Counted from the stretch's first letter, positions 14,450 through 37,869 are shown. The stretch is DNA of 64,000 nt from an uncultured Trueperaceae bacterium (GCA_963727505.1 CAVSGP010000005.1:32001-96000); one strand, 5' to 3'. Numbers and translations: made by a program. The notes: a model not told the origin generated them from the sequence alone.

Positions 14450-14450
14450 A

Positions 14451-15386: not shown

Positions 15387-15414
15387 CGATCGACCGCTCC
15401 TGTACGCAAGAGGG

Positions 15415-15502: not shown

Positions 15503-15512
15503 GGAGTCTCCG

Positions 15513-17358: not shown

Positions 17359-17508
17359 TGGCGGGCGGTGCAATGGTCGCAAGTCCCGCCGCGTCCGCTG
17401 CACGCAGGGATCGAGGCCCCCGGTCTGCGACTGCCCGCGATCCTCTTGTGGGCGGCGCGCGTGGGCCACGGGGCTCTTGAAGATTCGCGCATCGAGCGAG
17501 CCTGTTGC

Positions 17509-19014: not shown

Positions 19015-19052
19015 GGTGGGACTGCCTCCTTCGGGCGTAGAGGCCGGCGTGG

Positions 19053-21379: not shown

Positions 21380-21464
21380 GGATCCTCCCGCCCTTCCTAC
21401 CGATGCTTCGGCGGAGCGCGTCAACTCGGTCCGGGCCGGCGCATGTCGGGACGTCACGCCTTCT

Positions 21465-21478
21465 TGTTAACGCTCTCA
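21465..21478. promoter_or_regulatory. Putative LacI-type operator upstream of araB
   Basis: TGTTAACGCTCTCA. Confidence 0.7.
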
Positions 21479-21630
21479 GAATAGCGACCCCTCGCGAGGG
21501 GCGTCAAGACGCTGGACGATTCTGTGACGCTGCGCCCACACTTCCCTAGGGAGTTTCCCTAGTCGAATGCGCTCGGTACGCGCCAGCGCGGCCATCGGCT
21601 CGGTTGCGCGCCTCCCGCCCGATGGTAGGA

Positions 21631-21644
21631 TGTGAACGTTCTCA
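21631..21644. promoter_or_regulatory. Putative LacI-type autoregulatory operator
   Basis: TGTGAACGTTCTCA, overlapping a TAGGAT -10-like element upstream of the LacI gene. Confidence 0.7.
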
Positions 21645-21692
21645 GCACCAAAGCGGCTGGTAGGCTCTTCGGAGTCGAGATTCGGAGAGGGC

Positions 21693-22724
21693 ATGGGTTT
21701 GGCCGACAACCAGCGAAGGGCGACGCTTCACGATGTGGCAGAACTCGCCGGAGTGTCGCATCAAACGGTCTCACGGGTCGTCAACCGGCACCCGAGCGTG
21801 GCGGCGGCCACGCGGACGCGCGTGCTCGAGGCCATCCGCAAGCTCGACTACGCTCCCAATCGCGTCGCCCAGAGCCTGGCCACGCGTCGTTCCAAGACGG
21901 CGGGCATCATCGGCTACGGAACGACGCACTACGGTCCTTCGCAGATGGTCGCGCACATCGAAGCGACCCTCAAGATCAGGGGGTACGGGCTGGTCTACGC
22001 TGCGGTTCCCGACTTGAGCATCGAAGTGCTCCGGGAGCAGGTCGCCACGCTGCGGAACCAGCTCGTGGACGGGCTCGTGTTGATCACCCCCGTCGGGGGC
22101 GGTCACCTGGTGGAGACGAGCGACTTCATCGGGGTTCCTTACGTGATGATCGACGCCATGCTGGGCGAGCACGTTCCCTCGGTGGTGATCCACCAACACT
22201 ACGGCGCGCGGCTCGCCACGCGCCACCTCATCGAAAGCGGCCATCGTGCGATCGCGGAGATCAGCGGTCCCATGGAGTGGAGTGGCGCGAAGCAGCGCCA
22301 CGACGGATGGCTGTCGACGCTGTCCGACGCCGGGATCGAGCCGGGGGCCAGCGTCGAGGGGAACTGGACCGCAGAGAGCGGCTACGAAGCAGCCCGGCAC
22401 CTGCTCGAACGGGGCGCGCCGTTCACCGCCCTGTTCGCGGGCAACGACCAGATGGCGCTGGGAGCGATGCGCGCGCTGCGGGAAGCAGGGCGCAGGGTGC
22501 CGCGCGACGTCTCCGTGGTGGGGTTCGACGACGTGCCCGAGGCCGCCTACTACGAACCTCCGCTCACCACGATCCGACAGGATTTCCCGGCCCTGGGTCA
22601 GCAGGCGGTCGAGCTGCTGCTCGCCCGCATGGACGCTCCCGACGCGCCCGCCCATCAGCGCATCCTCTACCCGACCCTGATCGAGCGCGCCAGCGTCGCC
22701 AGCCCCAGCCTCGTCGCGTCCTGA
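21693..22724 (+). CDS. LacI-family transcriptional regulator (likely arabinose-regulon repressor)
   Basis: [34 protein letters not shown] hinge, SVVGFDD and LTTIRQ motifs; divergent from araB. Confidence 0.95.
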
Positions 22725-24343: not shown

Positions 24344-25296
24344 CAGGCGGCTCCCTTCAGCGCGGGGCGGGTGGCGAGCGCGACCGCGATCACCCGCTCC
24401 GCCTCGGCACGTTCGTCGCCGGTCAGCTCCAGTCGCGGCGGGCGAACGCGAGTGCTCCCGTGCCCGACGCGCTCCTGCGCCACCTTGATGAGCTGCACGA
24501 ACTTCGGCACCGTATCGAGCCGCAGCAGCGGCAGGAACCAGCGGTAGAGCGCGAATGCTTCTTCGTTCCGTCCCTGCCGCGCCAGCTCGAACAGCGCCAC
24601 CGACTCGGCGGGGAAGGCGTTGACCAGCCCCGCGATCCAGCCCACCGCGCCGGCGGCGATCCCCTCGACGATGGCGTCGTCGACGCCCACCAGGATCTCC
24701 AGGCGGTCGCTTGTCAGCGTGCGCAGCGCGGTCACGCGCCGCACGTCGGTGCTGGATTCCTTGATGGCGACGAGGTTGGGGTGCTCGTCTGCCAGCTCGG
24801 CCACCTGTTCGGGCGTGAAGTCGGTGGTGTAGGCAACCGGGTTGTTGTAGAGCATGCAGGGCAGCGAGGTGGCGTCCAGCACTGCGGCGACGTGCGCCTT
24901 CATCTCGCGCCAGTCGGTGCTGTAGACGTAGGGGGGCAGCACCATCAGGCCGCGGGCGCCCTCGGCTTCGACCGCCTGGGCGAAGCGCTTCGCCTCGGCG
25001 GTGGCGAGGGCGGCCACTCCGGGGATGACGGGTGCGCGCCCGTCCAGGGCAGTAACGAGGGTGTGCACCACCGCGACCTTCTCGTCGAAGGCGAGGGTGG
25101 CCGCCTCGCCCAGCGAGCCTCCCGGCACCACGCCGATGCACCCCTCGTCGACCATCCAGCGGGCGTGCTCGCCGAGGAAGGCGTGGTCGACCTCGAGGTC
25201 AGCGTTGAAGGGCGTGGTGATGGCGGGAAGGACGCCGCGCCAGTCGACGCGGCCCCCCGATGCTGAGGATGGCGTCTCCAGAGGGCTCGCTGGCAT
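24343..25296 (-). CDS. DHDPS-family protein, probable 1-pyrroline-4-hydroxy-2-carboxylate deaminase
   Basis: WRGVLPAITTPF, GSLGE, YNNP, IKESS and GWIAGLVNAFP motifs; context with Hyp epimerase. Confidence 0.82.
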   Translation of the reverse strand: MPASPLETPSSASGGRVDWRGVLPAITTPFNADLEVDHAFLGEHARWMVDEGCIGVVPGGSLGEAATLAFDEKVAVVHTLVTALDGRAPVIPGVAALATAEAKRFAQAVEAEGARGLMVLPPYVYSTDWREMKAHVAAVLDATSLPCMLYNNPVAYTTDFTPEQVAELADEHPNLVAIKESSTDVRRVTALRTLTSDRLEILVGVDDAIVEGIAAGAVGWIAGLVNAFPAESVALFELARQGRNEEAFALYRWFLPLLRLDTVPKFVQLIKVAQERVGHGSTRVRPPRLELTGDERAEAERVIAVALATRPALKGAA

Positions 25297-25513
25297 GCGC
25301 GGTCTCCTTTCGAGGCGGAGGCGAGACCCCTGCCTACAGGACGGGCGGTGTCCCGGTCCCGCTTAGCGCCTTCGGCGCCGGTCGGGGGCGGTCTCACAAC
25401 GGTAGACTATGGCCCGCGTCCGGGATGCATCAAGGCCGCGCGTCGAGCGCGCTTGCCGAGATCGTGCAATGCGAGGGGTGCGTCCGGGCGACGCGGGGAG
25501 CGGAGGCACGGAC

Positions 25514-26461
25514 GTGGACCTCCAACGCGTGCAGACCGTCGATTCCCACACGGCTGGCGAGCCCACCCGGGTCGTGATCGCCGGCGGCCCCGACCTGGGC
25601 GGTGGCGCCATGGCCGAGCGCCTCGAGCGCTTCCGACGCGACCACGACGCCTTCCGCTCCGCAGTCGTCAACGAGCCCCGCGGCTCCGACGTGCTGGTGG
25701 GCGCGCTGCTGCAGGAGCCGGTCGATCCCGCGGCGGCCGCCGGCGTGCTCTTCTTCAACAACGTGGGCATGCTGGGCATGTGCGGGCACGGGACCATCGG
25801 GCTCGTGCGCACCCTCCAGTACCTCGGCCGCATCGAGCCCGGCCGGCATCGCATCGAGACGCCGGTGGGCCCGGTCGAGGCGGAGTTGATGGGCGACGGC
25901 AGGGTGAGCGTGCGCAACGTGCCCGCCTACCGCCACCGCAAGGGCGTGCGCGTCGAGGTGCCGGGTCACGGGACCGTCACCGGGGACGTGGCGTGGGGCG
26001 GCAACTGGTTCTTCCTCACCGACGACCACGGCCAGGCGGTCGAAGCGGGGCGCACCCCGGCGCTTGCCGGCTACGCGCAGACGCTGCGCGACGCGCTGGC
26101 GGGCGCCGGCGTGACGGGCGCCGATGGCGCCGAGATCGACCACATCGAGCTGTTCGCTGCCGCTCCGGCGCCAGAGCTCGCCGACGGCCGCAGCTTCGTT
26201 CTCTGCCCTGGCGGCGCCTACGACCGCTCGCCCTGTGGCACCGGCACCAGCGCCAAGCTCGCCTGCCTGCATGCCGACGGCAGCCTGCGGCCGGGGGAGA
26301 CCTGGCGCCAGGAGAGCGTGATCGGCAGCCGGTTCGAGGCGCGCTACGAGCTCGACGACGAGGCGCGCGTGATCCCCACCATCACCGGCGAGGCGTTCGT
26401 CACGGCCGAGGCCACGCTGCTGTTCGACCCGCGCGACCCCTTCCGCTGGGGCATCCGATGA
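25514..26461 (+). CDS. 4-hydroxyproline 2-epimerase (proline racemase family)
   Basis: [24 protein letters not shown] and [12 protein letters not shown], with both catalytic Cys present. Confidence 0.9.
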
Positions 26462-27816
26462 GCCGCCGGGTCGTCGTGGTGGGCGCCGGCGTGGTGGGGC
26501 TGTTCAGCGCTCTGCACGCCCGCCGTGCCGGGTTCGAGGTGACCGTGGTGGACCACGAGGGGCCCGAGCGGGACACCACCTCCTTCGGGAACGCCGGTCT
26601 GGTGGTGCCGAGCCACGTCGTGCCGCTCGCCGCCCCGGGAGCCGTGGCGCAGGGCCTGAAGTGGATGTTCGACCCGGAGAGCCCGTTCTACGTACGGCCG
26701 GCGCTCGACCCCGAGCTGCTCGCCTGGGGGTGGCGCTTCTGGCGCGCCTCCACGGCCGAGCGCGCGCGCCGGGCGGGGCCGCTGCTGCGCGACCTGCACC
26801 GCGCCGGAAAGGCCGGCTACCTGGCGTTGGCCGAGCGCCTCGGCAACCCCTTCGACCTGAAGGAGACCGGCGTGCTGGGGATGTGCGTCACGGAGGAGGG
26901 GCTGGAGGACGAAGCGAGGGTCGTCGCGCGGGCGATCACGCTGGGGATGCCCGCCAGGGTGCTCGGAAAGGCCGAGGTGGAGGCGCTGCAACCGGGTGTA
27001 GAGCTCGACATCGTGGGCGGCGTCTATTTTCCAGAGGACGCGCGCCTCGACCCGGGCCGGCTGATGCGGGCGCTGCAGGCGCATCTCGTCGAGCTCGGGG
27101 TGACGTTCCGCTGGGGCGCACGCGTCGAGGGGCTCGAAATGAACGGCGACCTGATCGAGGGGGTGCGGGTGAGCGAGACGGGCTCGGGTCCGGCGCAGGG
27201 GGATGCGGCGGCGGGGCCCGCCCGCCCGGCGGGGGCACGGCCGGCCGGGACCCCTGCTTCGCAGGCCGGCTCCTACCGGAACGCCACCATCGCGGCGGAC
27301 GAGGTGGTGCTCGCCGCCGGGGTGTGGTCGGGTGGGCTGGCTCGAGCCCTGGGCCTGCGCCTGCCGCTGCGCGCCGGCAAAGGGTACAGCGTCACGCTCG
27401 CCGATCCGCCGCAGCGTCCGTCGACACCGGCCCTCCTGTCCGAGGGACGGGTCGCGATCACGCCACTCGAGACCGGGGTGCGCTTCGGAGGCACCATGGA
27501 GATCACGGGGGTGCGAGAAGGGGTCAGCGCCAGCCGCATGCGCGGCATCGTGAAGTCCGTGTTGCGCGCCTTCCCGGGCTTCACGGCCGAGGCGTTCGCG
27601 GACGCGCCGGTGTGGTACGGGTTCCGGCCCTGCAGCCCGGACGGGCTGCCCTACCTGGGCCGGACGGGCCGTGCGCGTAACCTGATCGTCGCCACCGGAC
27701 ACGCCATGATGGGGGTGTCGCTGGCGCCGGTGACGGGCCGTCTGGTAGGCGAGCTGCTGGCGGGGGAGCGTACGAGCCTGCCGCTCGAGACGCTCAGCCC
27801 GGACCGATACGCCTGA
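26458..27816 (+). CDS. D-amino-acid dehydrogenase-like FAD enzyme (probable D-hydroxyproline dehydrogenase)
   Basis: GAGVVG, TSFGNAG, GKGYS, GFRP and ATGH motifs; ATGA overlap with the epimerase stop. Confidence 0.85.
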
Positions 27817-27880
27817 ACACCACGGTGTCGGCCGCCGCTCGCCGTTGCGAGCGGCACCCGCATTCCGAAGGGAGACGCAC

Positions 27881-28870
27881 GTGAGCAAAGTTCGATGGGG
27901 CGTTCTCAGCACGGCCAACATCGCCGTGAGCAAGGTGATCCCGGCGCTGCAGAAGAGCGAGCTGGTCGAGGTGAGCGCCATCGCCTCCCGCGACCTGGGC
28001 AGGGCGCAGGCGGCGGCCGAGAAGCTCCGCATCCCGCACGCCTACGGCAGCTACGAGGAGCTTCTGGCGTCGCCCGAGGTCGACGTCGTGTACAACCCGC
28101 TCCCCAACCATCTCCACGTGCCCTGGTCGATCCGAGCGATCGAAGCCGGCAAGCACGTGCTGTGCGAGAAGCCCGTCGGATTGAGCGCCGAGGAGGGGGA
28201 GCGGCTGGTGCAGGCGTCGCGCGCGCACCCGGAGCTGAAGGTGATGGAGGCGTTCATGTACCGCTTCCACCCGCAGTGGCGCGAGGTGAAGCGCATCGTC
28301 GACGAGGGCGGCATCGGTGAGCTGCGCACCATCCAGTCGTTCTTCTCTTACTTCAAGCTCGACCCGGACAACATCCGCAACATGCCCGACATCGGCGGCG
28401 GCGGGCTGATGGACATCGGTTGCTACAACATCTCGCTGTCGCGCTTCGTGTTCGGCGCCGAGCCCACACGTGTGGTCTCCACCGTCGAGTTCGATCCGAA
28501 CCTTGGCGTCGACCGCCTGTCCTCGGCGATCCTCGACTTCGGCCGCGGCACCTCGACCTTCACATGCAGCACCCAGCTGGCGCCCTACCAGGCCGTGAGC
28601 GTCTTCGGCACGAAGGGGCGCGTTACCCTCGAGATCCCCTTCAACGCCCCGCAGGACGGCCCCAGCCGGCTCTGGCACCAGCGCGACGGAGAGACGGTCG
28701 AGCGCGTGTTCGACCGCGTCGACCAGTACACTCTCCAGGGCGATGCCCTCTCCCGGGCGGTCCTCGACGGCACTCCGGTTCCCACCCCGCTCGAGGACGC
28801 GGTGGCGAACATGCGGGTCATCGACGCGGTGTTCGGCAGCGGGCGGTCGGACGGGTGGGTGAACCTCTGA
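27881..28870 (+). CDS. Gfo/Idh/MocA-family oxidoreductase
   Basis: WGVLSTANIA, GKHVLCEKP and GGGLMDIGCY motifs. Confidence 0.92.
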   Translation: MSKVRWGVLSTANIAVSKVIPALQKSELVEVSAIASRDLGRAQAAAEKLRIPHAYGSYEELLASPEVDVVYNPLPNHLHVPWSIRAIEAGKHVLCEKPVGLSAEEGERLVQASRAHPELKVMEAFMYRFHPQWREVKRIVDEGGIGELRTIQSFFSYFKLDPDNIRNMPDIGGGGLMDIGCYNISLSRFVFGAEPTRVVSTVEFDPNLGVDRLSSAILDFGRGTSTFTCSTQLAPYQAVSVFGTKGRVTLEIPFNAPQDGPSRLWHQRDGETVERVFDRVDQYTLQGDALSRAVLDGTPVPTPLEDAVANMRVIDAVFGSGRSDGWVNL

Positions 28871-28913: not shown

Positions 28914-29714
28914 TCAGGGGGCGGGGGCCGCTCCCGGGTCCATGGGCCACCCCGCCATCTCCTCGATGACGGCGGCGAGGGCTTCCGCAGCAACGTCCAG
29001 CGCCTTTCGGCCGGCGTCCGCGGTGGCGAGCGTCGGATCTCCCAGCGTTCCACTGGAGGACAGCGTCCGAAAGCTGCGGAACGTCGCCACGACGCTCGAC
29101 TCGAACAGGTCCGTGCGGAGGTGCGGCGTCGCTCCCTCCGGGTAGGTGGTCTGAGCGACCGACATGTCCACCAGGGCGGGCTTGACGGCCAGCATGAGCG
29201 AGGTCTCGAACTCGCCGGCGTGACCGGTGCCCCCGGAGCGCGACCGCCGGATCTCGTGCTGACGTTCGCGCAGGAGTTCGAAGTACGTCACCGCTGCAAC
29301 GCGGGCACGGCCAGCGAGAGCATGACCGGCCTCGTGGGCTGCGGTTGCAGCCGCGGAGGCGTTGCCTCCGTGGCCATTCACGAGCAGGATCCGCTGCATG
29401 CCCTGTGCAGCCAGGCTCGAGCACAGGGACAGGACCACGTCGATCCAGAGGCGCGCGGAGAGTGTCAACGTGCCAGGGAAGTCCATGTGATGACTCGAGA
29501 GGCCGAGCCACAATGCAGGGGTGACGACGACCGAAGCGGAGCTCCGGCGCGCAGCCTCGGTGCTCACGGCCTCGGCAAGATAGCTGTCCGTCCCGACGGG
29601 AAGGTGCCAACCGTGCTGCTCGGTCGCGCCGAGCGGCACGAGAACGACGGCCCCGGCGTCGCGCAGCGCGGCCAGCTTGCGTTGGTCGAGGTCGGTCCAG
29701 CGATGGGCGCTCAC
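28914..29714 (-). CDS. Creatininase/creatinine amidohydrolase family protein
   Basis: EQHGWHLP.GTD, NGHGGN and HAGEFETS motifs. Confidence 0.9.
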   Translation of the reverse strand: MSAHRWTDLDQRKLAALRDAGAVVLVPLGATEQHGWHLPVGTDSYLAEAVSTEAARRSSASVVVTPALWLGLSSHHMDFPGTLTLSARLWIDVVLSLCSSLAAQGMQRILLVNGHGGNASAAATAAHEAGHALAGRARVAAVTYFELLRERQHEIRRSRSGGTGHAGEFETSLMLAVKPALVDMSVAQTTYPEGATPHLRTDLFESSVVATFRSFRTLSSSGTLGDPTLATADAGRKALDVAAEALAAVIEEMAGWPMDPGAAPAP

Positions 29715-30463
29715 GCGGCCGCCCCCTCGTCAAGAATGGCGCCGAGCTCCGCGGAGATGCGTCGAGCGCACGCGATAACGGCAGGGACGAGTGTGCGCTG
29801 GCGCTTCTCGGTGACGAAGACGGATGCGCCGCTCAGGCTGATGGCGGCCACCACGTTGCCGCGGGCATCGATGACGGGAGCCGCCACGCAGCGGATCCCG
29901 ACCTCGTTTTCTTCCCGATCGAAGGCGTATCCCTGGGAGCGAACCTCGGCCAGCTCGCGCAGGAAGGCCTCCCGGTCGGTGATGCTGTGCGGTGTTGCAG
30001 GGGCGAGACTCATGTAGCGACCGTCCCATTCGTCCGGGGAGATGCTCGCCAACAGCACCTTGCCCATGGCCGTGGTTTGGGCGGGACTCTGAAGGCCAAC
30101 GTGGCTGGCCATCTGCAGGCCGCGTCGCCCCTCCATCTTGGCGATGTAAATGACGTGCGACGCGTCGAGGATGCCCAGATGGACGGTCTCTTGGGTGTCC
30201 GACGCCAACTTCCGCATCGGTTCGTCGGCCAGAGCCGGGAGGCGCAGTTGCCGGCGCACTTGCTCGCCGAGCTGGAGCAGCCGGATCCCGAGCCGGTAGT
30301 TCCGGCCCTCTCGCGCTAGGACGTGCCGGTCCACCAGATCGCTCAGCAGGCGGTGGACCGTGCTGCGTGGCATCCGGCTGGCCTCCGCGAGCTCGCCAAG
30401 CGTCACCTTCCCCGATGCCACGAGATCCACGAGCGCGAACGCCTTGTCGAGCGATGTTCCCAT
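29711..30463 (-). CDS. IclR-family transcriptional regulator
   Basis: SLDKAFALV...PRSTVHRLL HTH, ETVHL, TAMGKVLL and GIRCVAAPV motifs. Confidence 0.93.
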   Translation of the reverse strand: MGTSLDKAFALVDLVASGKVTLGELAEASRMPRSTVHRLLSDLVDRHVLAREGRNYRLGIRLLQLGEQVRRQLRLPALADEPMRKLASDTQETVHLGILDASHVIYIAKMEGRRGLQMASHVGLQSPAQTTAMGKVLLASISPDEWDGRYMSLAPATPHSITDREAFLRELAEVRSQGYAFDREENEVGIRCVAAPVIDARGNVVAAISLSGASVFVTEKRQRTLVPAVIACARRISAELGAILDEGAAA

Positions 30464-30523
30464 GCCACACGCTCCTCCCCGTCGCCACAGGGCCCGGCAT
30501 TGGGGCCTCCGCCGCACACGGCA

Positions 30524-30560
30524 GTTCCAGTATATGGGACGACTGTCCGTATAGTTGAAA
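30524..30560. promoter_or_regulatory. Two imperfect palindromes, candidate IclR operators
   Basis: GTTCCAGTATATGGGAC (30524-30540) and TGTCCGTATAGTTGAAA (30544-30560) in the divergent promoter region. Confidence 0.5.
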
Positions 30561-30728
30561 ATCGGACCCCACATCGCGTAAGCTTGCAATGAGCTTGCAA
30601 GTGAGCTTCTGGGTTGCCGAGGACCGTCCTGCGTGACGTGTCCGAGGCGCAAAGCATGCGGCGCGAGGGGGCGTCGCGAGTGGGCCGACAGGGTCGGACC
30701 GCAATGGCTCTAGTGGAGGTGCCAGTCG

Positions 30729-32015
30729 ATGAGACGCTTCACGATCTACGCAGTGGCGGCTGTGCTCGCAGCCTTCTTCCTGACGGCGGCGTTCGCGCAA
30801 GCGCCGCTGAAGCTGACCGGTTGGCCTTACCAGGTCGACACGGTCAACGCGAACCTCGCGAGGTTCCAGCAGCAGACCGGCATCTCGGCTACGTTCTCGC
30901 CGTTCCCCAGCGACAATTACCACGACAAGATGGTGGCCTCGTTCGTGGGCGGTACCGACTTCGACGTCGTGTACGTGCGCGACAACTTCCTCGCCGAGTG
31001 GGCGTCGGCGGGGTGGCTCACGCCTATCGACGGCATGCCGGGCGTGCAGCAGTACGTCAGTGATCTCCCCGGTGCCATCGTGAACCAGCTCTCCTACGAC
31101 GGGAAGCTGTACGGATTGCCGTACTACTCGGGCATGTCGGTGTTCGCATACAACGCCGATCAGCTCAAGCAGGCGGGTGTCGACCAGCCCCCGAAGACCT
31201 GGGACGATCTGCTGGCGGCGGCGAAGAAGGTCAAGGACGCCGGCATCAGCGACCACCCCATCATCCTTGAGCTCAAGAAGGGTGACTACATCACCCAGAC
31301 GCTCGAGATCATCACCGCGGGCTTCGGTGGCAAGATGTTCAACGACACCAACGAACCGGTCTTCCAAGAGCAGGGGAGCGCCTTCCGCTCGGCGGTGGAC
31401 TGGATCCGCAAGGGCCTGGAGATGGGCGTCATCGACCCCGCATCGCTTAGCTCCGATGACCACGACGTGACGCTGGCGCTGTCCGCGGGCACGCACACCT
31501 TCACGCTGGTAGCCGACTACAACCTCAAGACCATCAACGATCCCGAGCAGTCGAAGACGGCCGGCCAGGTCAAGAACGCCCTTATCCCGGGCAACGGCTC
31601 CACGGTCAGCGGCACCACCTCGTACGTCCGCCTGTACGGCATCACCTCGAACTCCAAGAACAAGGATGAGGCCTGGAAGCTGGTTCAGTTCCTCGGCGGC
31701 AAGGACGCCACCGGCGAGTACTACGTGCCAAAGAGGTGGGCGCTCGACTACGGTCTCGGCTTCGCCTACACCTCGATGTACAACGACCCCGACATCCGTG
31801 CGTCGTTGCAGGACTGGATCAACCCGGACCTCCTGAGCAAGCAGGCGGATTACGCCGTGAACCGCTCCTACCGCTTCACGCCTTACTTCTCCGACTGGCA
31901 GACCAGCGAGTGGGGCACCATGCAGAACCTGCTGTCGGGTAGCGGCTCGATGGACAAGACGCTTGACGGCATGGCTAAGCACTGGAACGACCTCAAGTCT
32001 CAATACGGCGGATAG
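30729..32015 (+). CDS. CUT1 ABC transporter solute-binding protein
   Basis: Signal peptide ending AFAQ; DGKLYGLP and PPKTWDDL motifs. Confidence 0.9.
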   Translation: MRRFTIYAVAAVLAAFFLTAAFAQAPLKLTGWPYQVDTVNANLARFQQQTGISATFSPFPSDNYHDKMVASFVGGTDFDVVYVRDNFLAEWASAGWLTPIDGMPGVQQYVSDLPGAIVNQLSYDGKLYGLPYYSGMSVFAYNADQLKQAGVDQPPKTWDDLLAAAKKVKDAGISDHPIILELKKGDYITQTLEIITAGFGGKMFNDTNEPVFQEQGSAFRSAVDWIRKGLEMGVIDPASLSSDDHDVTLALSAGTHTFTLVADYNLKTINDPEQSKTAGQVKNALIPGNGSTVSGTTSYVRLYGITSNSKNKDEAWKLVQFLGGKDATGEYYVPKRWALDYGLGFAYTSMYNDPDIRASLQDWINPDLLSKQADYAVNRSYRFTPYFSDWQTSEWGTMQNLLSGSGSMDKTLDGMAKHWNDLKSQYGG

Positions 32016-32053
32016 GACGGAACGGGGACCAACGTGATTCCCTCCGAGTCTCA

Positions 32054-32083
32054 GCACCACGGCGCCTCCGGGCGCCGTGGTGC
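32054..32083 (+). promoter_or_regulatory. Stem-loop after the SBP gene
   Basis: 13-bp perfect stem gcaccacggcgcc / ggcgccgtggtgc. Confidence 0.65.
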
Positions 32084-32087
32084 CCGT

Positions 32088-32969
32088 GTGACGCGGGAGA
32101 GCAGCCCGGGAACGTTGGCGGCGATGTTCTCCGCCCCCACGTTGCTGGTCATCTTCACCACCATCGTGTTCCCGCTCGGCTATGCGGTTTATCTGAGTTT
32201 GCACCGCTACAACCTCAAGTTTCCGGTACGTCCCTTCGTGGGGCTCCGGAATTACGCCCGGCTCCTCCAGAGCGGTGAGTTCTGGAACTCGCTGACGACG
32301 ACCTTTGTCTTCTCGCTGTCGGCGGTGGTGGCGATCATCGTGGTGGGCTTCTTCATCGCCCTGCTGCTGGACCAGGACTTCCCCGGACGGGGGCTGCTGC
32401 GGGCGTTGCTGCTGGTGCCGTGGGCGGTACCGCCGGTGGTCAACGGCCTGCTCTGGAAGTGGCTGCTCGATCCCGGCTACGGCGTGGTCAACGGCCTGCT
32501 GACGCAGCTCCACCTCATCGACAGCTATCGTTCCTGGTTGACCAGCATGCCGAGCGCCATGATCTGGGTGGTTTCGGCCTACACCTGGACGCACGTTCCG
32601 CTGGCCGCGCTGCTGATTCTTGCGGGTCTACAGACGATCCCGGGCGAGCTGTACGAGGCGGCTACGGTGGACGGAGCCTCGTCCTGGCAGCGCCTCACGG
32701 GCATCACCCTTCCGCTGGTGCGCCCCACCATCATGGTGGTCCTCATCTTCGAGACGATCTTCGCGTTGAAGGTGTTCGACATCATCTACGTCTTGACGGG
32801 CGGAGGGCCCGGCAATGCCACCACGGTGCTGGGGTGGGAGATCTATTCCAAGACCTTCCGCCAGCTCGACTTCGGCAACGGCAGTGCCCTCGCCATTCTG
32901 CTCGGGCTGATCACGCTCGGGCTCGCCGCCGGCTACTTCGCGATGCTCAATCGCGAGCGCTCGACCTGA
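32088..32969 (+). CDS. Carbohydrate ABC permease (MalF-like)
   Basis: LYEAATVDGA and LTGGGPG motifs. Start placed after the hairpin; alternative start 32034. Confidence 0.9.
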   Translation: MTRESSPGTLAAMFSAPTLLVIFTTIVFPLGYAVYLSLHRYNLKFPVRPFVGLRNYARLLQSGEFWNSLTTTFVFSLSAVVAIIVVGFFIALLLDQDFPGRGLLRALLLVPWAVPPVVNGLLWKWLLDPGYGVVNGLLTQLHLIDSYRSWLTSMPSAMIWVVSAYTWTHVPLAALLILAGLQTIPGELYEAATVDGASSWQRLTGITLPLVRPTIMVVLIFETIFALKVFDIIYVLTGGGPGNATTVLGWEIYSKTFRQLDFGNGSALAILLGLITLGLAAGYFAMLNRERST

Positions 32970-32988
32970 ATCGGGAGGAAGCGACACC

Positions 32989-33873
32989 GTGTTCGTGACG
33001 AAGCGACAACGACGCATCGGACGCATGGTCGCGCTCTACGCGGCGGCTCTGGTGGTGCTCGCCTATCTGGTGGGCCCCTTCCTGTGGCTGGTGACCTCCA
33101 GCTTTCAGACCGAGACCCGGCTGCTGAGCGTCCCGCCGAGCTGGATCCCCCGACCACTGAACTTCGGCAGTTACCGGGAGCTCCTGACCGGCGCCTTCCT
33201 GCCGCAATCGGCGGGCGTTCCCTACCAGTCGCGGGTGTTCCTGCGGGCCATGCTGAACAGCTTCATCGTGGCGGGGTCGGTATCGGTGCTGGCGCTGGCG
33301 TTCGGCGCCTTCGCCGCCTATCCGCTCGCTCGGTTGAAGTTCCGCGGGCGCAACGGCCTGATGTTCCTGATCCTCGCGACGCGACTGATCCCGGCCCTGG
33401 CGCTGGCCGTGCCGTTCTACCTGCTGGCGAACCGCCTTGGCGTCCTCGACCAGCTCGGTACGCTCATCGTCATCAACCTCTCGTTCGTCCTGCCGTACGT
33501 GGTGTGGCTGTTGCAGTCCTACTTCCGAACGATCCCGATGGACCTCGAGGACGCGGGGCGCATCGACGGCTGCAGCCGTAGTCAGGTCGTGACCCGGATC
33601 ATCATGCCACTGGCCATGCCGGGCCTGGTCTCGGCAGGGATCCTGGCATTCCTTCTCACCTGGGGCGAGTTCTTCTTCGCCCTCATCCTCACCAGCTCGC
33701 AACGTGCCTACACCAGCACGGTCGTGGCGGCCATGTTCGCCACGGACATCGACGTCAACTATGTCACCATCATCACGGCGGGTGTGCTGTCGGTCCTGCC
33801 CCCCGTGCTGTTCGCACTCATCTTCCAGCGCTATATCGTGAGCGGCCTGCTGTCGGGGGCCGTGAAAGGCTGA
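32989..33873 (+). CDS. Carbohydrate ABC permease (MalG-like)
   Basis: DLEDAGRIDG, WGEFF and SGAVKG motifs. Confidence 0.92.
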   Translation: MFVTKRQRRIGRMVALYAAALVVLAYLVGPFLWLVTSSFQTETRLLSVPPSWIPRPLNFGSYRELLTGAFLPQSAGVPYQSRVFLRAMLNSFIVAGSVSVLALAFGAFAAYPLARLKFRGRNGLMFLILATRLIPALALAVPFYLLANRLGVLDQLGTLIVINLSFVLPYVVWLLQSYFRTIPMDLEDAGRIDGCSRSQVVTRIIMPLAMPGLVSAGILAFLLTWGEFFFALILTSSQRAYTSTVVAAMFATDIDVNYVTIITAGVLSVLPPVLFALIFQRYIVSGLLSGAVKG

Positions 33874-33875
33874 GC

Positions 33876-35207
33876 ATGAACGACGACACGCCCACGTCTT
33901 CAATCCTCGACTGGCTCCGCCAGAACCGGGTCATCAACGCCTCGGGAACCATGACGTTCCTGGGCGCGTCCATCGTCGCGCCCGAGACCGCCGCCGTCGT
34001 CCACGAGAGCCTCGGCTACTTCGTGGATATTGCCGCTCTGCAGGCGCACGCGAGTGCGACCATCGCCCGGCTTACGGGCGGTGAGGCCGGCTGCGTGAGC
34101 GCCTGCGCCGCCTCTGGGATCGCGGTTTCGCTGGCGGCGGCGATGACCGGCCTGGAGCCGTCTGCGGCCGAGGATCTTCCCGACGGCCAGGGCATCTCGC
34201 GCCGCCGCGTCGTGATCCAGCGAGGCCACGTCGTGAACTACGGTGCGTCGATCCTGCAGCTCATCCGACAGATCGGCGCCGTGCCGGTAGAGATCGGCAC
34301 CGCGACGCACGGCGAGGCCTTCGAGCTGGCTCATGCGCTGACGCCGGAGACGGCGGCCGCCCTGTACGTGGTGAGCCACCACACCGTGCAGTCCGAGCAG
34401 ATCGGCCTCGGCGATTTCGTCGAAACTTGCCACGCCGCCGGCGTGCCCGTCGTCGTGGACGCGGCGTCCGAGTACGATCTGCGCAGCTTCCTGGAGCTCG
34501 GGGCCGATATCGTCGTGTATAGCGCGCACAAGTTCCTGAGCGGAGCCACAGCCGGCATCGTGGCGGGCCGCAAGGAGCTGGTGCGGGCCGCGTACATGCA
34601 TCAGTCGGTCGGGTTGGGTCGGCCGATGAAGGTGGGCAAGGAGGGGATCGTCGGGGCCGTGGCAGCGCTCGAGCGCTGGGAACGCCTCGATCACCGGGAC
34701 CTGCACCGGCACGAGTACGCGCGCGTCGAGGCCCTCCGCGACGGCCTGTCCCGGGTGGACGGCGTGACGGTCGAAGAGTTGCCCGATCCCACCGGGAACC
34801 CCATCACCCGCCTCCGTGTGCGCATCGATCGGGCGCGGTCCGGCCGGACGGCGGCATGGTTGGCCAAGCGCTTGCGTGCGAGCTCTCCGGCCATCGTCGT
34901 GCGGGATCACCACGTCGATCTCGAGTTCTTCGAGCTCGATCCCTGCAACCTCCTCGACGACGACGTCGACGTCATCGTGAAGCGCTTCATGGACCTGTCG
35001 ACCGAGCTCCTCGGCGTTCCGCCCCAGACGTCCGGCGACTTCGGCCCGCGCATGGCGCATTACGACGAAGACGGCCTTCCGCGCGTCGACCTCGACCGTG
35101 TGCCCTGGGCGTTTTCGCGGGTCGCCTACGGCGGACGGGCACACGGGATGGAGACCTGGCCCGACGTCTACCTGGAGAAGTCGGTCGACGGAGCCGGCGA
35201 AGAGTGA
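33876..35207 (+). CDS. SelA-related PLP enzyme, DgaE (D-glucosaminate-6-P ammonia-lyase)-like
   Basis: VINASGTMTFLGAS, VDAASE, YSAHK (PLP Lys) and GRPMKVGKE motifs. Confidence 0.85.
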   Translation: MNDDTPTSSILDWLRQNRVINASGTMTFLGASIVAPETAAVVHESLGYFVDIAALQAHASATIARLTGGEAGCVSACAASGIAVSLAAAMTGLEPSAAEDLPDGQGISRRRVVIQRGHVVNYGASILQLIRQIGAVPVEIGTATHGEAFELAHALTPETAAALYVVSHHTVQSEQIGLGDFVETCHAAGVPVVVDAASEYDLRSFLELGADIVVYSAHKFLSGATAGIVAGRKELVRAAYMHQSVGLGRPMKVGKEGIVGAVAALERWERLDHRDLHRHEYARVEALRDGLSRVDGVTVEELPDPTGNPITRLRVRIDRARSGRTAAWLAKRLRASSPAIVVRDHHVDLEFFELDPCNLLDDDVDVIVKRFMDLSTELLGVPPQTSGDFGPRMAHYDEDGLPRVDLDRVPWAFSRVAYGGRAHGMETWPDVYLEKSVDGAGEE

Positions 35208-36376
35208 GCGGCTACCTTCTCAGATCGGTCCACCCGATGCCGGGGCGCTCGGGTGCCTCCCGGGAGACGGTCGACGTGCTCGTGGACCCCGCGGGTCGCG
35301 TGGCGCGCGTCGAGCCCTCCATCGACGCCCCGGACGGCGTGCGGGCCGTCGATGGCCGGGGGGCGTACCTGTCGCGCGGGTGGACGGACCTTCACACGCA
35401 CGTCTACTACGGCGCCACCGACATCTCGGTGCGCCCCTCGCAAGCAGGCATGGCGACCGGCGTGACGACGCTGGTGGACACGGGCTCCTCTGGCGAAGCG
35501 AACTTCCATGGTTTTCGCGAGTACATCATCGATAAGGCCGACGAGCGGGTGTTCGCGTTCCTGAACATCGGGTCCATCGGCCTCGTCGCGACCAACCGGG
35601 TGAGCGAGCTCATCGATATCCGGAGCATCGATTTCGACCGCTCGCTGGCAGTCATCGAGCGAAACCGAGACGTGATCAAGGGGATCAAGATCCGCGCCAG
35701 TCACGTCATCACGGGGAGTTGGGGAATCACGCCGCTGAAGGTCGCCAAGAAGCTGAGCCGCACGGTCGGGCTGCCGCTCATGGTGCACGTCGGTGAACCT
35801 CCTCCCTTGCTCGACGATGTCCTCGCACACCTCGATGCGGGTGACATCGTGACGCACTGCTTCAACGGCAAGCCGGGCGGCAACGTGCTGGACGACGAGC
35901 ACGTGTTCGCTGCAGCGCGCGATGCGCAACGCCGCGGCGTGCTCTTCGACATCGGGCACGGCTCGGCATCGTTCTCCTTCGACGTCGCCGAGCGCGCCCT
36001 CGCCCGGGGTCTGGAGCTCCACAGCATCAGCACGGACCTTCACGGGCACAACATCGATGGGCCGGTCGTCGACCTAGCCACGACGATGTCCAAGCTTCTA
36101 GCCCTCGGCGTGGATCTGGACACGGTCGTGGCGGCTGTGACGGTGGCGCCTGCGAAGGCGCTGCGGCTCGAGGAGGAAGGGTGGCTCGAGCTGGGATCCT
36201 TCGCGGATTTCACGGTCTTCGATGTCCAGGACGTCGACCTTACGGTGCGCGACTCTCGCGGAAGCGTGCGGCGCTTGGGTCGGTTCATCCGACCTCTCCA
36301 TGCAGCCCGCGGCGCCCACATCGTCGCGGCGGGGAGTCGCTCGCTCGATGGATCGAAGGAACGAGGTGGCGGGTGA
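35204..36376 (+). CDS. COG3964-type amidohydrolase/deacetylase (dihydroorotase-like)
   Basis: DLHTH, GVTTLVDTGSSG, GIKIRAS, MVHVG, THCFNG, DIGHG and ISTD motifs; GTGA overlap. Confidence 0.85.
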   Translation: MSGYLLRSVHPMPGRSGASRETVDVLVDPAGRVARVEPSIDAPDGVRAVDGRGAYLSRGWTDLHTHVYYGATDISVRPSQAGMATGVTTLVDTGSSGEANFHGFREYIIDKADERVFAFLNIGSIGLVATNRVSELIDIRSIDFDRSLAVIERNRDVIKGIKIRASHVITGSWGITPLKVAKKLSRTVGLPLMVHVGEPPPLLDDVLAHLDAGDIVTHCFNGKPGGNVLDDEHVFAAARDAQRRGVLFDIGHGSASFSFDVAERALARGLELHSISTDLHGHNIDGPVVDLATTMSKLLALGVDLDTVVAAVTVAPAKALRLEEEGWLELGSFADFTVFDVQDVDLTVRDSRGSVRRLGRFIRPLHAARGAHIVAAGSRSLDGSKERGGG

Positions 36377-36843
36377 CGACGCCGGACGAACGCCTAGAGG
36401 CACTGGGTATCCGCTTGCCGGCTCCTCCAGAACCCGTGGCCAACTTCGTCGTTGCGGTGCGTCACGGCGACACGCTCTTCCTCTCGGGGCAGGGGCCGAC
36501 GCGAGAAGGCAAGCCGGTCTACACCGGGAAGCTGGGCGACACGGTCACCGTCGAGGAGGGTTACGAAGCCGCGAGGTTGTGTGCACTCAACCTGCTCGGT
36601 GTGGTTCAGGCCGAGATCGGCCTGCTCGATCGTGTGCGGCGCGTCGTGAAGCTACTGGCGTTCGTGGCGAGCGCGAGCGGATTCGATCAACAACCGAGCG
36701 TGGTCAACGGCGCCTCCGATCTTCTGGTCGAGGTGTTCGGCCCGCGCGGTCGGCACGCCAGGAGTGCGATCGGGACAAGTCAATTGCCCTTCGACATCCC
36801 GGTCGAGATCGAGATGATCGTAGCGCTCGAGAGAGGGGATTGA
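36373..36843 (+). CDS. RidA/YjgF-family protein
   Basis: LFLSGQGP, NGASDL, HARSAIG (conserved Arg) and VEIE motifs; GTGA overlap. Confidence 0.9.
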   Translation: MTTPDERLEALGIRLPAPPEPVANFVVAVRHGDTLFLSGQGPTREGKPVYTGKLGDTVTVEEGYEAARLCALNLLGVVQAEIGLLDRVRRVVKLLAFVASASGFDQQPSVVNGASDLLVEVFGPRGRHARSAIGTSQLPFDIPVEIEMIVALERGD

Positions 36844-36849
36844 GCGGCC

Positions 36850-37869
36850 ATGGCGCGGGGAGGCGGTCCGCAGAACCAAGGACGAGAGGGCGGGCGCCCC
36901 CTCGCTCTAGAGCGCCGGTACGACGTTGCTACGTTCGGCGAGACCATGATCCGCCTCTCGGCGCCGTCGGGGGTGCGTCTGCCGGTCACTTCCGCGTTGT
37001 CCGTTCACGCCGGAGGCGCCGAGAGCAACGTCGCCGCCGATCTCGCGCAGCTCGGCCGGCACACGACCTGGTACAGCGCCTTGCCGGACCACGCCATGGG
37101 AGATGCGGTCGTCCGACGCATCGCAGCGGCAGGCGTGGACGTGTCGCACGTCAAGCGCGTGCCCGGAACGCGCGTCGGCGTCTACTACCTCGAGGGAGGG
37201 CTGGACGCCTCAACCCCCGAAGTCATCTACGATCGGCAGGCGACTGCGTTCTCTTGCATCGCGCCTGGAGACTTGCCCTTGGCGGCACTTCTCGACACGC
37301 GGGTGCTCCACGTTAGCGGGATCTCGGCGGCCGTGGGCGCGGGCCCCCGGGCGGCGCTCGTTCGGCTCTTGGACGAGGCGAAGCGCGCCGGCGTCTTGCT
37401 GAGCTTCGACATCAACTACCGTTCGCGTCTGTGGGACGCCGAGCAGGCGAGCGAAGCGCTGGCTCCCCTAGTGTCGCGCGCCGACCTCCTGTTCGTGAGC
37501 GAGTCGGACGCATCCACCCTGTTCCATCACAGGGGTGCGCCGGAGGCGATCGTCCGCGCACTCTCCGAACGGTCGCAGGCGAGCGTCGTCGTGCTGACCC
37601 GAGGTGATCGGGGCGTGGTTGCGTCGATCGATGGGACGATCCACGAGGTCCTGGCCCTTCCGGTGCAGGTGATCGACCGGCCCGGGGCCGGAGACGCGCT
37701 GGCGGCGGGGGTCCTGGATGGTGTGTTGGATGGCGATGCCCTTGCAGGGGTCCACCGCGGCGTGGTCCTTGCAGCGCATGCGCTCACGCAACTGGGGGAC
37801 ATCGTGACGACGAGTCGTAGCGATCTTCTGCGCTTCATGGCGAAGCCCCGCACGACGATCGCGAGATAG
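36850..37869 (+). CDS. PfkB-family sugar kinase, 2-keto-3-deoxygluconate kinase-like
   Basis: FGETMIRL, GGAESNVA, YDR, SFDINYRSRLW and DRPGAGDA motifs. Confidence 0.85.
   Translation: MARGGGPQNQGREGGRPLALERRYDVATFGETMIRLSAPSGVRLPVTSALSVHAGGAESNVAADLAQLGRHTTWYSALPDHAMGDAVVRRIAAAGVDVSHVKRVPGTRVGVYYLEGGLDASTPEVIYDRQATAFSCIAPGDLPLAALLDTRVLHVSGISAAVGAGPRAALVRLLDEAKRAGVLLSFDINYRSRLWDAEQASEALAPLVSRADLLFVSESDASTLFHHRGAPEAIVRALSERSQASVVVLTRGDRGVVASIDGTIHEVLALPVQVIDRPGAGDALAAGVLDGVLDGDALAGVHRGVVLAAHALTQLGDIVTTSRSDLLRFMAKPRTTIAR

Follow-up and report, generated by a model that had tools for sequence, protein, structure and literature searches.

The window analysed here is a 64,000-nucleotide stretch of DNA from an uncultured Trueperaceae bacterium, a soil or sediment organism. 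Nine genes at positions 28914-37869 all match, in Pfam and NCBIfam profile searches, the families named for them beforehand in an earlier note on this DNA, and the divergent cassette described there is real, with all nine genes in place. The regulator and a creatininase-family gene are encoded on the minus strand, divergently from a seven-gene operon on the plus strand that runs in the order solute-binding protein, permease 1, permease 2, DgaE-like PLP lyase, COG3964 amidohydrolase, Rid protein and KDG-type kinase. The features are as follows.

28914-29714, minus strand: creatininase-family (PF02633) metal hydrolase (Pfam Creatininase PF02633, E 4.8e-66)
29711-30463, minus strand: IclR-family transcriptional regulator (IclR_C, E 1.2e-48, and HTH_IclR)
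30464-30728: divergent intergenic region of 265 bp, with presumed promoters and operator
30729-32015, plus strand: secreted solute-binding protein of a sugar-type CUT1 ABC importer (SBP_bac_1, E 4.8e-36)
32034-32969, plus strand: ABC permease 1, UgpA/MalF-like (BPD_transp_1, E 2e-19)
32989-33873, plus strand: ABC permease 2, MalG/UgpE-like (BPD_transp_1, E 6.3e-21)
33876-35207, plus strand: DgaE-like fold-type I PLP enzyme of the SelA/DgaE family, 443 aa (TIGR01437, NF047797, PDB 7lc0/7lce)
35204-36376, plus strand: COG3964/PRK09237 (EF_0837-type) amidohydrolase-deacetylase (NF006689, PDB 2ogj)
36373-36843, plus strand: Rid-family protein, YjgF_endoribonc type (PF14588, E 3.8e-20)
36850-37869, plus strand: PfkB kinase (PfkB, E 3.7e-40)

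The tight gene overlaps pointed out in the earlier note are also present. Two 4-bp GTGA overlaps join the lyase to the amidohydrolase (35204-35207) and the amidohydrolase to the Rid gene (36373-36376), and the iclR stop overlaps the creatininase-family start by 4 bp (29711-29714); these two minus-strand genes are co-transcribed. The other plus-strand genes follow one another closely: permease 1 lies 18 bp behind the solute-binding protein gene and 19 bp ahead of permease 2, the lyase begins 2 bp after permease 2, and 6 bp separate the Rid gene from the kinase. Neither flank is related to the cassette; a hydroxyproline-type cluster and a GFO/IDH/MocA oxidoreductase lie upstream and a CLC channel downstream.

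Judged from its sequence, the PLP enzyme is a relative of DgaE and not a DgaE orthologue. It belongs with SelA/DgaE as the earlier note had it, though it scores under both NCBIfam DgaE cut-offs (304.8 bits against 385.3 for the TIGR01437 DgaE family and 287.8 bits against 600 for the NF047797 DgaE equivalog). The gene is present as a single copy in the genome, and the protein matches the Salmonella enzyme (PDB 7lc0/7lce) at E 2e-63. Residues K219, H168/H169 and R232 align with the PLP lysine, His-162/His-163 and the carboxylate Arg-226 of Salmonella DgaE; in the alignment of relatives the two His and the Lys are invariant and position 232 is variable. Salmonella DgaE, the sole characterised relative, acts on a 6-phosphate, and its three-arginine phosphate cluster (Arg-301/332/346) derives from a manual docking model (PMC9529869). 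The window lyase keeps two of these residues, as R312 and R343, and has Cys357 at the position of Arg-346. The third arginine is likewise Cys in the Rid-linked clades; L161 and L167, relatives that retain it, lack both PTS and kinase and import through ABC systems as well, and the change does not track with phosphate use in any way seen. Both enzymes would give a product of the same class, a 2-keto-3-deoxy-gluconate derivative feeding an Entner-Doudoroff aldolase. The present enzyme differs in its C-terminal extension of about 70 aa and in the Cys, and its operon has an ABC importer, deacylase, Rid protein and kinase in place of a PTS and an adjacent DgaF; profile searches of the operon genes found neither a mannose-family PTS nor DgaF. 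The enzyme is predicted to be a 2-amino-2-deoxy-aldonate (glucosaminate) ammonia-lyase with the unphosphorylated acid as its substrate. The proposed reaction is that of glucosaminate ammonia-lyase (EC 4.3.1.9), which converts D-glucosaminate to KDG and ammonia and is known from older Pseudomonas enzymology. We know of no tie between this classical activity and a SelA/DgaE-family gene, and a literature search found no paper linking the two.

The amidohydrolase, which starts with the GTG inside the first GTGA overlap, is a member of NF006689 (420.2 bits, over the cut-off of 371) and matches PDB 2ogj at E 1.9e-132 over residues 4-377 of 390. This structure is presumably that of Agrobacterium Atu3266. 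In 2013 Ornelas and colleagues (Biochemistry 52:228) reportedly found that the 2ogj-type enzyme deacetylates R-configured carboxylic acids at the alpha-heteroatom; its best substrates are said to be acetyl-(R)-mandelate and similar non-physiological compounds, reportedly with no natural substrate or pathway assigned. Such a geometry would fit N-acetyl-D-glucosaminate also, and the window protein is predicted to be an N-deacylase of an imported N-acyl amino-aldonate. The Rid protein is not an archetypal RidA, since it scores 30.3 bits against a cut-off of 106.25 for TIGR00004. It matches PDB 3d01 and, most closely, 9bk9 (Rid family protein PA0814), contains the motif HARSAIG, whose Arg we take to be catalytic, and is predicted to hydrolyse the 2-imino or enamine compound that the lyase releases.

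The kinase falls under the curated cut-off of every NCBIfam KDG kinase model, with its best score for the bifunctional KDG/KDGal kinase NF041332 (249 bits, cut-off 440) and 81.8 bits for the NF052444 KdgK (cut-off 400). Its best PDB match is the Thermus thermophilus KDG kinase 1v19 (E 3.5e-41), and it is predicted to be a 2-keto-3-deoxy-gluconate/galactonate kinase (KdgK). An Eda-type KDPG aldolase lies on another contig (G000:C1:16232-16819). The idea in the earlier note that the kinase replaces the aldolase is not supported, as both are needed and relatives pair the kinase with an Eda or DgaF-like aldolase.

The N-terminus of the solute-binding protein resembles, by eye from its residues, a signal peptide without a lipobox Cys, and its best PDB match is weak (sorbitol-binding protein 4rya, E 4e-19). 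The best NCBIfam model for permease 1 is UgpA, under the cut-off. The nine-gene cassette (28914-37869) has no ABC ATPase; the genome has one of MalK type, outside the cassette.

The Ong cluster of Pseudoalteromonas offers the closest comparison. In the pathway published for it in 2022, N-acetyl-glucosaminate is converted to glucosaminate, KDG and KDG-6-P without initial phosphorylation, and the deacetylase, PLP deaminase, RidA and KdgK are each essential for growth on GlcNAc1A (PMC9537276). The same report describes a KdgK that acts on KDG and hardly on GlcNAc1A, a fold-type III PLP enzyme, OngC, that deaminates D-serine and D-threonine as well, and a survey in which the complete pathway is almost confined to Gammaproteobacteria (PMC9537276).

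For the window, we consider it slightly better than an even chance that the cassette is an IclR-controlled operon with an Ong-like logic that takes up and degrades an N-acyl 2-amino-2-deoxy-aldonic acid, most likely N-acetyl-D-glucosaminate (GlcNAc1A). GlcNAc1A is the C1-oxidised form of GlcNAc and an oxidised chitin product. The CUT1-type ABC system would import the acid with energy from the genome's single MalK-type ATPase, encoded elsewhere, and the COG3964 amidohydrolase would strip the acyl group to give a free D-alpha-amino acid, glucosaminate. The DgaE-like enzyme would then act on this acid, still unphosphorylated, to eliminate its 3-OH and amino group, with the Rid protein hydrolysing the resulting 2-imino or enamine product. 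The PfkB kinase would form KDG-6-phosphate, which the Eda aldolase from the other contig would split into pyruvate and glyceraldehyde-3-phosphate. This order of deacylation, PLP elimination without phosphorylation and KDG phosphorylation, put forward in the earlier note, is the best-supported reading from comparative context. No LPMO_10, GH18 or GH20 gene was found in the bacterium's own genome (97% complete), so a link to chitin would be through monomer scavenging only.

The catabolic core of the Ong cluster of Pseudoalteromonas prydzensis (OngB, OngC, OngD and KdgK; PMC9537276; PMC12017989), made up of deacetylase, PLP deaminase, RidA and KdgK, is matched one for one in gene content, and the predicted reaction order, the absence of initial phosphorylation, an aldolase encoded elsewhere and repressor control are shared. 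The Rid protein (PF14588/PF01042) and the KDG-type kinase correspond at family level. The deacetylase, in contrast, is of COG3964/PRK09237 type whereas OngB is of D-aminoacylase type, and the deaminase, as a relative of SelA/DgaE, is of fold type I whereas OngC is fold-type III, so the window lyase is an analogue of OngC and not a homologue. The importer is a CUT1 ABC system instead of an SSS (sodium-solute) symporter, the regulator is IclR instead of MurR/RpiR, and the GH20 OngA, TonB receptor and LPMO are absent from both the cluster and the genome here. The bacterium's own genome gave no tblastn match at E 1e-8 to the OngB orthologue of L147, one of the related loci compared below, and holds no PF14031 D-ser_dehydrat domain, which we take OngC to carry. 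What is new relative to Ong is the enzyme families (deacetylase and deaminase) and the importer, not the chemistry; the route that the earlier note put forward as a candidate undescribed one had been published for the Ong cluster in 2022 (PMC9537276).

At least 2582 proteins match the window lyase at E <= 1e-20. The related loci compared here are the best matches to the lyase query, 161 in number and mostly from Mesorhizobium and other Alphaproteobacteria; as these loci are kin, counts over them are not independent. Genes within 8 kb of the lyase were counted as neighbours. A Rid gene was found in 90 of the 161 loci and an IclR gene in 77. COG3964 genes do occur beside SelA-like lyases, as had been stated for them, in 36 of 161, and any candidate deacylase in 42. 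The importers nearby (SBP_bac_3 in 45/161, SBP_bac_5 in 31/161 and GntP in 7/161) are of types that suit amino acids, acyl-amino acids or sugar acids. A close CUT1 importer accompanies the lyase solely in L003, where the solute-binding protein adjoins the lyase and is 59% identical, and permeases 1 and 2 are 66% and 64% identical. A KdgK or KDPG aldolase stands beside the lyase in a minority of the 161 loci. A KdgK-like gene was near the lyase in just 10 of 161 loci (7 of the 80 where both flanks reach at least 5 kb), and three of these ten (L027, L032 and L051) are weak, distant PfkB matches of 29-32% identity. The exact nine-gene set was found in none of the 161 related loci. The outcome for joint conservation, whose lack the earlier note had listed among the points against its reading, is thus mixed: the exact set is not conserved, but the functional module recurs with swapped parts, including three or four deacylase families (one of them the PpOngB orthologue) and several importer types. 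Such varying partners around the lyase read as the pattern of non-orthologous displacement.

Several loci preserve larger parts of the module. Importer, lyase and amidohydrolase occur jointly in L003, with identities of 55-66%. L146 and L147 have the order KdgK, OngB orthologue, Rid, IclR, DgaE-like lyase, porin and GntP permease; their deacetylase matches PDB 9kb1 at E 2e-163, and this entry was confirmed as PpOngB. No second PLP gene was found in the L146/L147 stretch, so the DgaE-like enzyme occupies the place of OngC. In L097 (G332, a genome of the same genus), the order is amino-acid-type ABC importer, DgaE-like lyase (57% identical to that of the window), RidA, IclR, PfkB kinase, PIG-L family de-N-acetylase and DgaF-like KDPG aldolase; the logic is unchanged, and the deacetylase comes from a third family. 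The lyase adjoins a kinase and/or an Eda aldolase in L107, L108, L140 and L104 as well. In the tree, the window lyase groups with L003, L083 (G332) and L099 (SH-aLRT 99), and a separate nearby clade holds L140, L104, L107, L108 and L128 (support 99); KdgK and/or Eda are nearby in six of the nine rows of these two clades.

Other readings of the cassette differ in where the kinase acts or in what is imported. It is fairly unlikely that the same chemistry serves another substrate class, a different N-acyl D-beta-hydroxy-alpha-amino acid or a conjugate, such as N-acetyl-galactosaminate or -mannosaminate, an acylated hydroxy-amino acid, or a compound of opine or Amadori type, with the kinase acting on the matching keto-deoxy acid or on a released sugar. 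The natural substrate of the 2ogj family is unsettled, the best NCBIfam model for the kinase is bifunctional for KDG and KDGal, and the genome is without the chitin-degrading genes sought (LPMO_10, GH18 and GH20). ABC importers of peptide or amino-acid type, without a kinase, are found in most of the related loci. In L107 and L108 there are further thrC-like PLP enzymes together with an M20 deacylase and an aminotransferase, a hint that some relatives handle more complex substrates. OngC, too, deaminates D-serine and D-threonine (PMC9537276). However, KdgK, Eda, a DgaF-like aldolase, the GntP permease and the OngB orthologue recur near the lyase, which argues for a six-carbon 2-amino-aldonate giving KDG or KDGal and not for a small amino acid, and galactosaminate or mannosaminate in place of glucosaminate would amount to a variant of the main explanation and not to a real rival.

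We regard as rather improbable a route in which import and deacylation are followed by phosphorylation of glucosaminate (or its N-acetyl form) at C6 by the PfkB kinase, which would stand in for the PTS, so that the DgaE-like enzyme would yield KDPG directly. The best models and best PDB matches of the kinase are all KDG kinases, although it lies below every curated KDG-kinase cut-off and its specificity is thus not fixed by sequence. In 151 of the 161 loci no PfkB kinase lies within 8 kb of the lyase, which is more in keeping with a housekeeping KdgK that acts on KDG than with a kinase devoted to glucosaminate. Salmonella DgaE, the one relative to have been characterised, does use a 6-phosphate (PMC9529869), and two of the three docked phosphate-site arginines are kept (R312 and R343); against this, the third is Cys in the Rid-linked clades and the lyase is under both DgaE model cut-offs. 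L146 and L147 are otherwise Ong-like, and the Ong KdgK acts on KDG and hardly on GlcNAc1A (PMC9537276). It is highly improbable that the genes adjoin without forming one pathway, so that a single compound would be handled by the lyase, amidohydrolase and Rid protein, and ordinary sugar metabolism would be served by the importer and kinase. The exact combination occurs in none of the other 161 loci, and a GC content of 0.665 in the cluster, where the genome has 0.699, points to acquisition as a mosaic, but the seven plus-strand genes have gaps of at most 19 bp and two 4-bp start/stop overlaps, the importer stays with the lyase and the amidohydrolase in L003 (55-66% identity), and the kinase-lyase linkage recurs in distant lineages.

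The preferred reading, Ong-like catabolism of an N-acyl amino-aldonate, can be extended tentatively, at somewhat less than an even chance. The Rid-linked branch of SelA/DgaE proteins with the 'DPCN' motif would consist of fold-type I lyases that release ammonia from unphosphorylated glucosaminate, and COG3964 enzymes of the 2ogj type would be their natural upstream partners, deacetylating N-acetyl-glucosaminate. Joined by a dedicated Rid protein, the two would make up a second pathway for oxidised chitin and glucosamine products, one that evolved independently. If so, its occurrence in Alpha- and Betaproteobacteria and here and there in other phyla would cover ground from which the Ong pathway, restricted to Gammaproteobacteria, is missing, and the orphan COG3964 family would gain a physiological substrate, N-acetyl-glucosaminate.

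On the minus strand, the longest iclR open reading frame spans 29711-30652, but the HMM match starts only at about residue 60-67, and the ATG at 30463 gives a protein of 250 aa. The nearest NCBIfam models are BhcR and KdgR, each below its cut-off, and the protein is a probable repressor of the divergent operon. Neither an inverted repeat nor a sigma-70-like site was found in 30464-30728, which leaves the operator there undefined. The creatininase-family protein falls under the NCBIfam cut-offs for MftE, creatininase and IolN, and its best PDB matches are creatinine amidohydrolases at no better than E 1e-18 to 1e-17. A homologue of 39% identity occurs in one of the 161 related loci (L108).

The earlier note described a divergent nine-gene cassette, and this layout is borne out by the ORF listing and by HMM scans:

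28914-29714, minus strand: creatininase-family hydrolase, its start overlapping the iclR stop by 4 bp
29711-30463, minus strand: IclR regulator, start reassigned to the ATG at 30463
30464-30728: intergenic region of 265 bp between the divergent arms
30729-32015, plus strand: SBP_bac_1 binding protein (SBP)
32034-32969, plus strand: permease 1
32989-33873, plus strand: permease 2
33876-35207, plus strand: SelA/DgaE-like PLP enzyme (the lyase)
35204-36376, plus strand: PRK09237/COG3964 amidohydrolase
36373-36843, plus strand: Rid protein
36850-37869, plus strand: PfkB kinase

The iclR start was moved on the evidence of the HMM match, which covers the longest ORF only from about residue 60 onwards. 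The creatininase-family gene is co-transcribed with the IclR regulator gene. Start/stop overlaps of the GTGA type occur at the lyase-amidohydrolase and amidohydrolase-Rid junctions, and the remaining gaps in the plus-strand operon are 2 to 19 bp. Neither an inverted repeat nor a sigma-70-like site was found in 30464-30728. The flanks are unrelated to the cassette, with a hydroxyproline-type set and a GFO/IDH/MocA oxidoreductase upstream and a CLC channel downstream. The cassette has a GC content of 0.665 versus 0.699 for the genome, and a value as low is reached by only 4.2% of the 1051 9-kb windows taken across the genome.

The window's own assembly (3.26 Mb, 15 contigs, 97% complete) holds one copy each of the lyase, amidohydrolase and Rid genes, together with an Eda-type KDPG aldolase at C1:16232-16819. 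The operon lacks an ABC ATPase because the single MalK-type (OB_MalK) ATPase found in the genome is encoded elsewhere (G000:C4:9854-10006, locus L179). Matches to a CUT1-like SBP or permease number a dozen or more in this genome, and its gene content suggests that one ATPase is shared by all of its sugar ABC importers. No OngB-type, PIG-L-type or GntP-type genes were found in it by tblastn (E 1e-8), and a domain search returned no LPMO_10, GH18, GH20 or D-ser_dehydrat domains. A chitin link via the organism's own enzymes was rejected on the lack of the first three of these domains. Half or more of the sampled words of the window stretch were matched in metagenome runs of soil and sediment, which came from two studies.

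Lytic polysaccharide monooxygenases and sugar oxidases convert part of the world's chitin and glucosamine to aldonic acids. We know of no worked-out route for the consumption of N-acetyl-glucosaminate other than the Ong pathway. This system was studied in Pseudoalteromonas, N-acetyl-D-glucosaminate (GlcNAc1A) being a C1-oxidised chitin product (Jiang et al., 2022; PMC9537276). In that paper, OngB, of the D-aminoacylase family, deacetylates GlcNAc1A, OngC, a fold-type III PLP enzyme, performs the deamination yielding 2-keto-3-deoxy-gluconate (hereafter KDG), KdgK phosphorylates KDG, and a member of the RidA family, OngD, is genetically essential; the complete pathway was detected almost exclusively in Gammaproteobacteria (PMC9537276). 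The earlier note had proposed deacylation of an N-acyl amino-aldonate, PLP-dependent elimination and KDG phosphorylation as a candidate undescribed route; this chemistry was already published as the Ong pathway. All four cytoplasmic Ong proteins have functional counterparts in the window; its deacetylase comes from another amidohydrolase family than OngB and its deaminase is of a different fold type from the fold-type III OngC. The pathway logic is known, and what is new is the enzyme families at two steps. Full-text searches that covered few subscription journals found no paper that connects the SelA/DgaE family with COG3964 and KdgK through a route of this sort.

To our knowledge, structures of COG3964 amidohydrolases have been available for more than ten years, in which time their only substrates have been surrogates. 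The window amidohydrolase passes the NCBIfam model PRK09237 (420.2 against a cut-off of 371) and matches PDB 2ogj (E 1.9e-132), which we take to be Atu3266, treated as a cog3964 enzyme by Ornelas et al. 2013. The kinase is nearest to KDG/KDGal kinases: its NF041332 score of 249 bits falls short of the cut-off, and its match to the KDG kinase of T. thermophilus (1v19) has E 3.5e-41. The Rid protein is of the PF14588 type, nearest to PA0814-like Rid proteins, and retains an Arg in HARSAIG.

Among 8000 candidates scored, at least 2582 lyase relatives were found at E <= 1e-20; the nearest two, both metagenomic, are 87% and 81% identical and every other is at most 61% identical. The lyase is patchy in its own phylum, since only 14 of 364 species-level genomes have a match at E <= 1e-30 (own genome counted) and the only close one is the same-genus genome G332 (58%), one of nine other genomes of the genus. 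More distant SelA/DgaE-like genes of the phylum (L084-L096; L numbers denote loci) are 32-36% identical to the window lyase. They have AM, VM or other residues in place of its His-His pair and form a separate deep clade, and are therefore predicted to be probably of different function.

Gene neighbourhoods were scored by tblastn at 161 loci, the best matches to the query (80 from species-representative genomes, 80 from metagenomes and the G332 contig), using window proteins and proteins from informative loci as queries. The set includes many short contigs, is dominated by Mesorhizobium and other Alphaproteobacteria, and counts the near-duplicates L097/L098, L146/L147 and L105/L106.

Genes near the lyase (E <= 1e-8, >= 60% query coverage, within 8 kb): all loci; loci with >= 5 kb on both flanks
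Rid protein: 90/161; 64/80
IclR: 77/161; 56/80
COG3964 amidohydrolase: 36/161; 30/80
Any candidate deacylase: 42/161; 34/80
KdgK-like kinase: 10/161 (three weak and distant: L027, L032, L051); 7/80
Eda or DgaF-like aldolase: 5/161; 2/80
GntP permease: 7/161; 6/80
SBP_bac_3: 45/161; 33/80
SBP_bac_5: 31/161; 29/80
CUT1 SBP: 4/161 (only L003 close, 59%); 0/80
Creatininase-like: 1/161 (L108); 1/80

The GFO/IDH/MocA oxidoreductase gene (27845-28870) showed no conserved linkage to the lyase in this survey. The constant core across loci is lyase, Rid and IclR. The deacylase varies (absent, COG3964, OngB-type, PIG-L or M20), as does the importer (amino-acid ABC, peptide-type ABC, sugar ABC or GntP), and KdgK and the aldolase are local in some loci and not in others. 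Among culturable carriers, Mesorhizobium has the SBP_bac_3 type and Rhizobium or Ensifer the Dpp type with COG3964.

Gene contents of informative loci, from Pfam/NCBIfam profiles
L146/L147: KdgK, PpOngB-like deacetylase, Rid, IclR, DgaE-like lyase, Gram-negative porin, GntP permease
L097 (G332, same genus): SBP_bac_3 ABC system, lyase, RidA, IclR, PfkB kinase, PIG-L de-N-acetylase, DgaF-like aldolase
L107: Dpp-type ABC, COG3964, second D-aminoacylase-like amidohydrolase, lyase, kinase
L108: IclR, aminotransferase, Rid, Dpp-type ABC, an amidohydrolase, lyase, thrC-like PLP enzymes, M20 deacylase, creatininase-like gene (39% identical), Eda, kinase
L140: IclR, Rid, aldehyde:ferredoxin oxidoreductase, SBP_bac_3 ABC, DUF6282, lyase, Eda, kinase
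L003: nearest importer orthologues (59-66%), lyase, two COG3964-like amidohydrolases, LacI regulator; contig stops 972 bp upstream of the lyase
L036 and four similar loci (Paraburkholderia type): IclR, Rid, lyase, GntP only

L146/L147 is an Ong-like cluster with a DgaE-like enzyme in the place of OngC; its deacetylase matches PpOngB (9kb1) at E 2e-163, and the identity of 9KB1 as PpOngB was confirmed. A quick IQ-TREE analysis of the lyase with SH-aLRT support (160 rows; HSPs shorter than 330 aa, HSPs with stops and exact duplicates excluded) placed the window lyase with L003, L083 (G332) and L099 in one clade (support 99), and L140, L104, L107, L108 and L128 in another (support 99). KdgK and/or Eda lie nearby in six of these nine rows, and three rows (L003, L099, L128) have truncated flanks. 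A large proteobacterial clade of 128 rows has SBP_bac_3, SBP_bac_5 with COG3964, and GntP contexts. The tree does not settle in what order these groups branched.

We lean somewhat towards reading the window operon as a route of this kind for an N-acyl amino-aldonate, GlcNAc1A being the likeliest substrate. Deacylase-bearing loci would take up the N-acyl form; those that lack a deacylase would import glucosaminate, the free amino acid, which would suit amino-acid-type ABC systems and GntP. Where the Entner-Doudoroff pathway already runs, no local KdgK or Eda would be required.

In the main mechanistic rival, the PfkB kinase would supply the 6-phosphate and the lyase would keep the phospho-specificity of DgaE; this appears quite unlikely. 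The lyase fails both NCBIfam DgaE models (287.8 against a cut-off of 600 for the equivalog, 304.8 against 385.3 for the family). Residues discussed in PMC9529869 were transferred to it via pairwise alignment. It retains H168/H169 as the His-His pair, K219 as the PLP lysine and R232 as the carboxylate arginine, along with R312 and R343, two of the three arginines that the authors of that paper docked to the 6-phosphate. The third position is Cys357, inside a DPCN motif that is invariant in a 19-sequence alignment and seen in most tblastn rows. Cys357 could not be used as a marker of lost phosphate binding, since the Arg-keeping relatives L161, L166, L167 and L171 likewise have ABC importers, with a PALP enzyme and AstE/AspA-type deacylases, and no PTS or kinase. 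A different substrate class is fairly unlikely. The best match of the SBP among solved structures is the sorbitol SBP, at only 72 bits too weak to indicate specificity. Chance juxtaposition of the cassette genes is highly improbable because of the start/stop overlaps and the synteny with L003.

If the module does the Ong job with other enzymes, it would explain aldonic-acid use by many soil Alpha- and Betaproteobacteria and by organisms like this one. Many proteins now mis-annotated as "selenocysteine synthase-like / aminotransferase class V", which form a large group, would be given a function, COG3964 amidohydrolases would gain a concrete natural substrate, and the module would be a clear example of non-orthologous displacement affecting two successive steps in a single pathway.

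Threonine-synthase-like or PALP-family PLP enzymes recur beside DgaE-like genes, with and without Rid (L107:281-1567, L108:11209-12471, L108:14481-15779, L161:8718-9884, L167:72-1091), and may reflect either another family of substrates or an additional PLP step. The aldehyde:ferredoxin oxidoreductase (L140:2237-4183) and DUF6282 protein (L140:5741-6667) lie inside a metagenomic lyase cluster, possibly a variant that works anaerobically and has one more step. On a metagenomic contig, the catabolic cluster is followed downstream by a TIR-domain protein of Thoeris ThsB-like type (L107:11678-12556). Records L009 and L042 are titled Mycobacterium or Mycobacteriaceae and look mislabelled or contaminated; the tree places both tightly with Inquilinus and other Alphaproteobacteria, and the L009 neighbourhood is of Inquilinus type.

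Elsewhere, the window carries an L-arabinose utilisation cluster (13529-22724) and the hydroxyproline-type catabolic set (22814-27816):

13529-15458: CUT1 ABC permeases, arabinose cluster
15513-17216: CUT1 SBP, arabinose cluster
within 17509-19743: AraA
19053-19703: class II aldolase AraD-like gene
19700-21457: FGGY kinase
21693-22724: LacI regulator
within 22814-25141, minus strand: aldehyde dehydrogenase, hydroxyproline-type set
24343-25296, minus strand: DHDPS-family gene
25409-26461, plus strand: proline-racemase family gene
within 25348-27816, plus strand: DAO FAD oxidoreductase
27845-28870: GFO/IDH/MocA oxidoreductase, after this set and convergent with the creatininase-like gene

At 47308-50104 lie genes bearing DUF4900 and a motif for N-terminal methylation (type IV pilin / pseudopilin); such pilin-motif genes, together with an SBP signal peptide without a lipobox Cys, hint at a diderm envelope.
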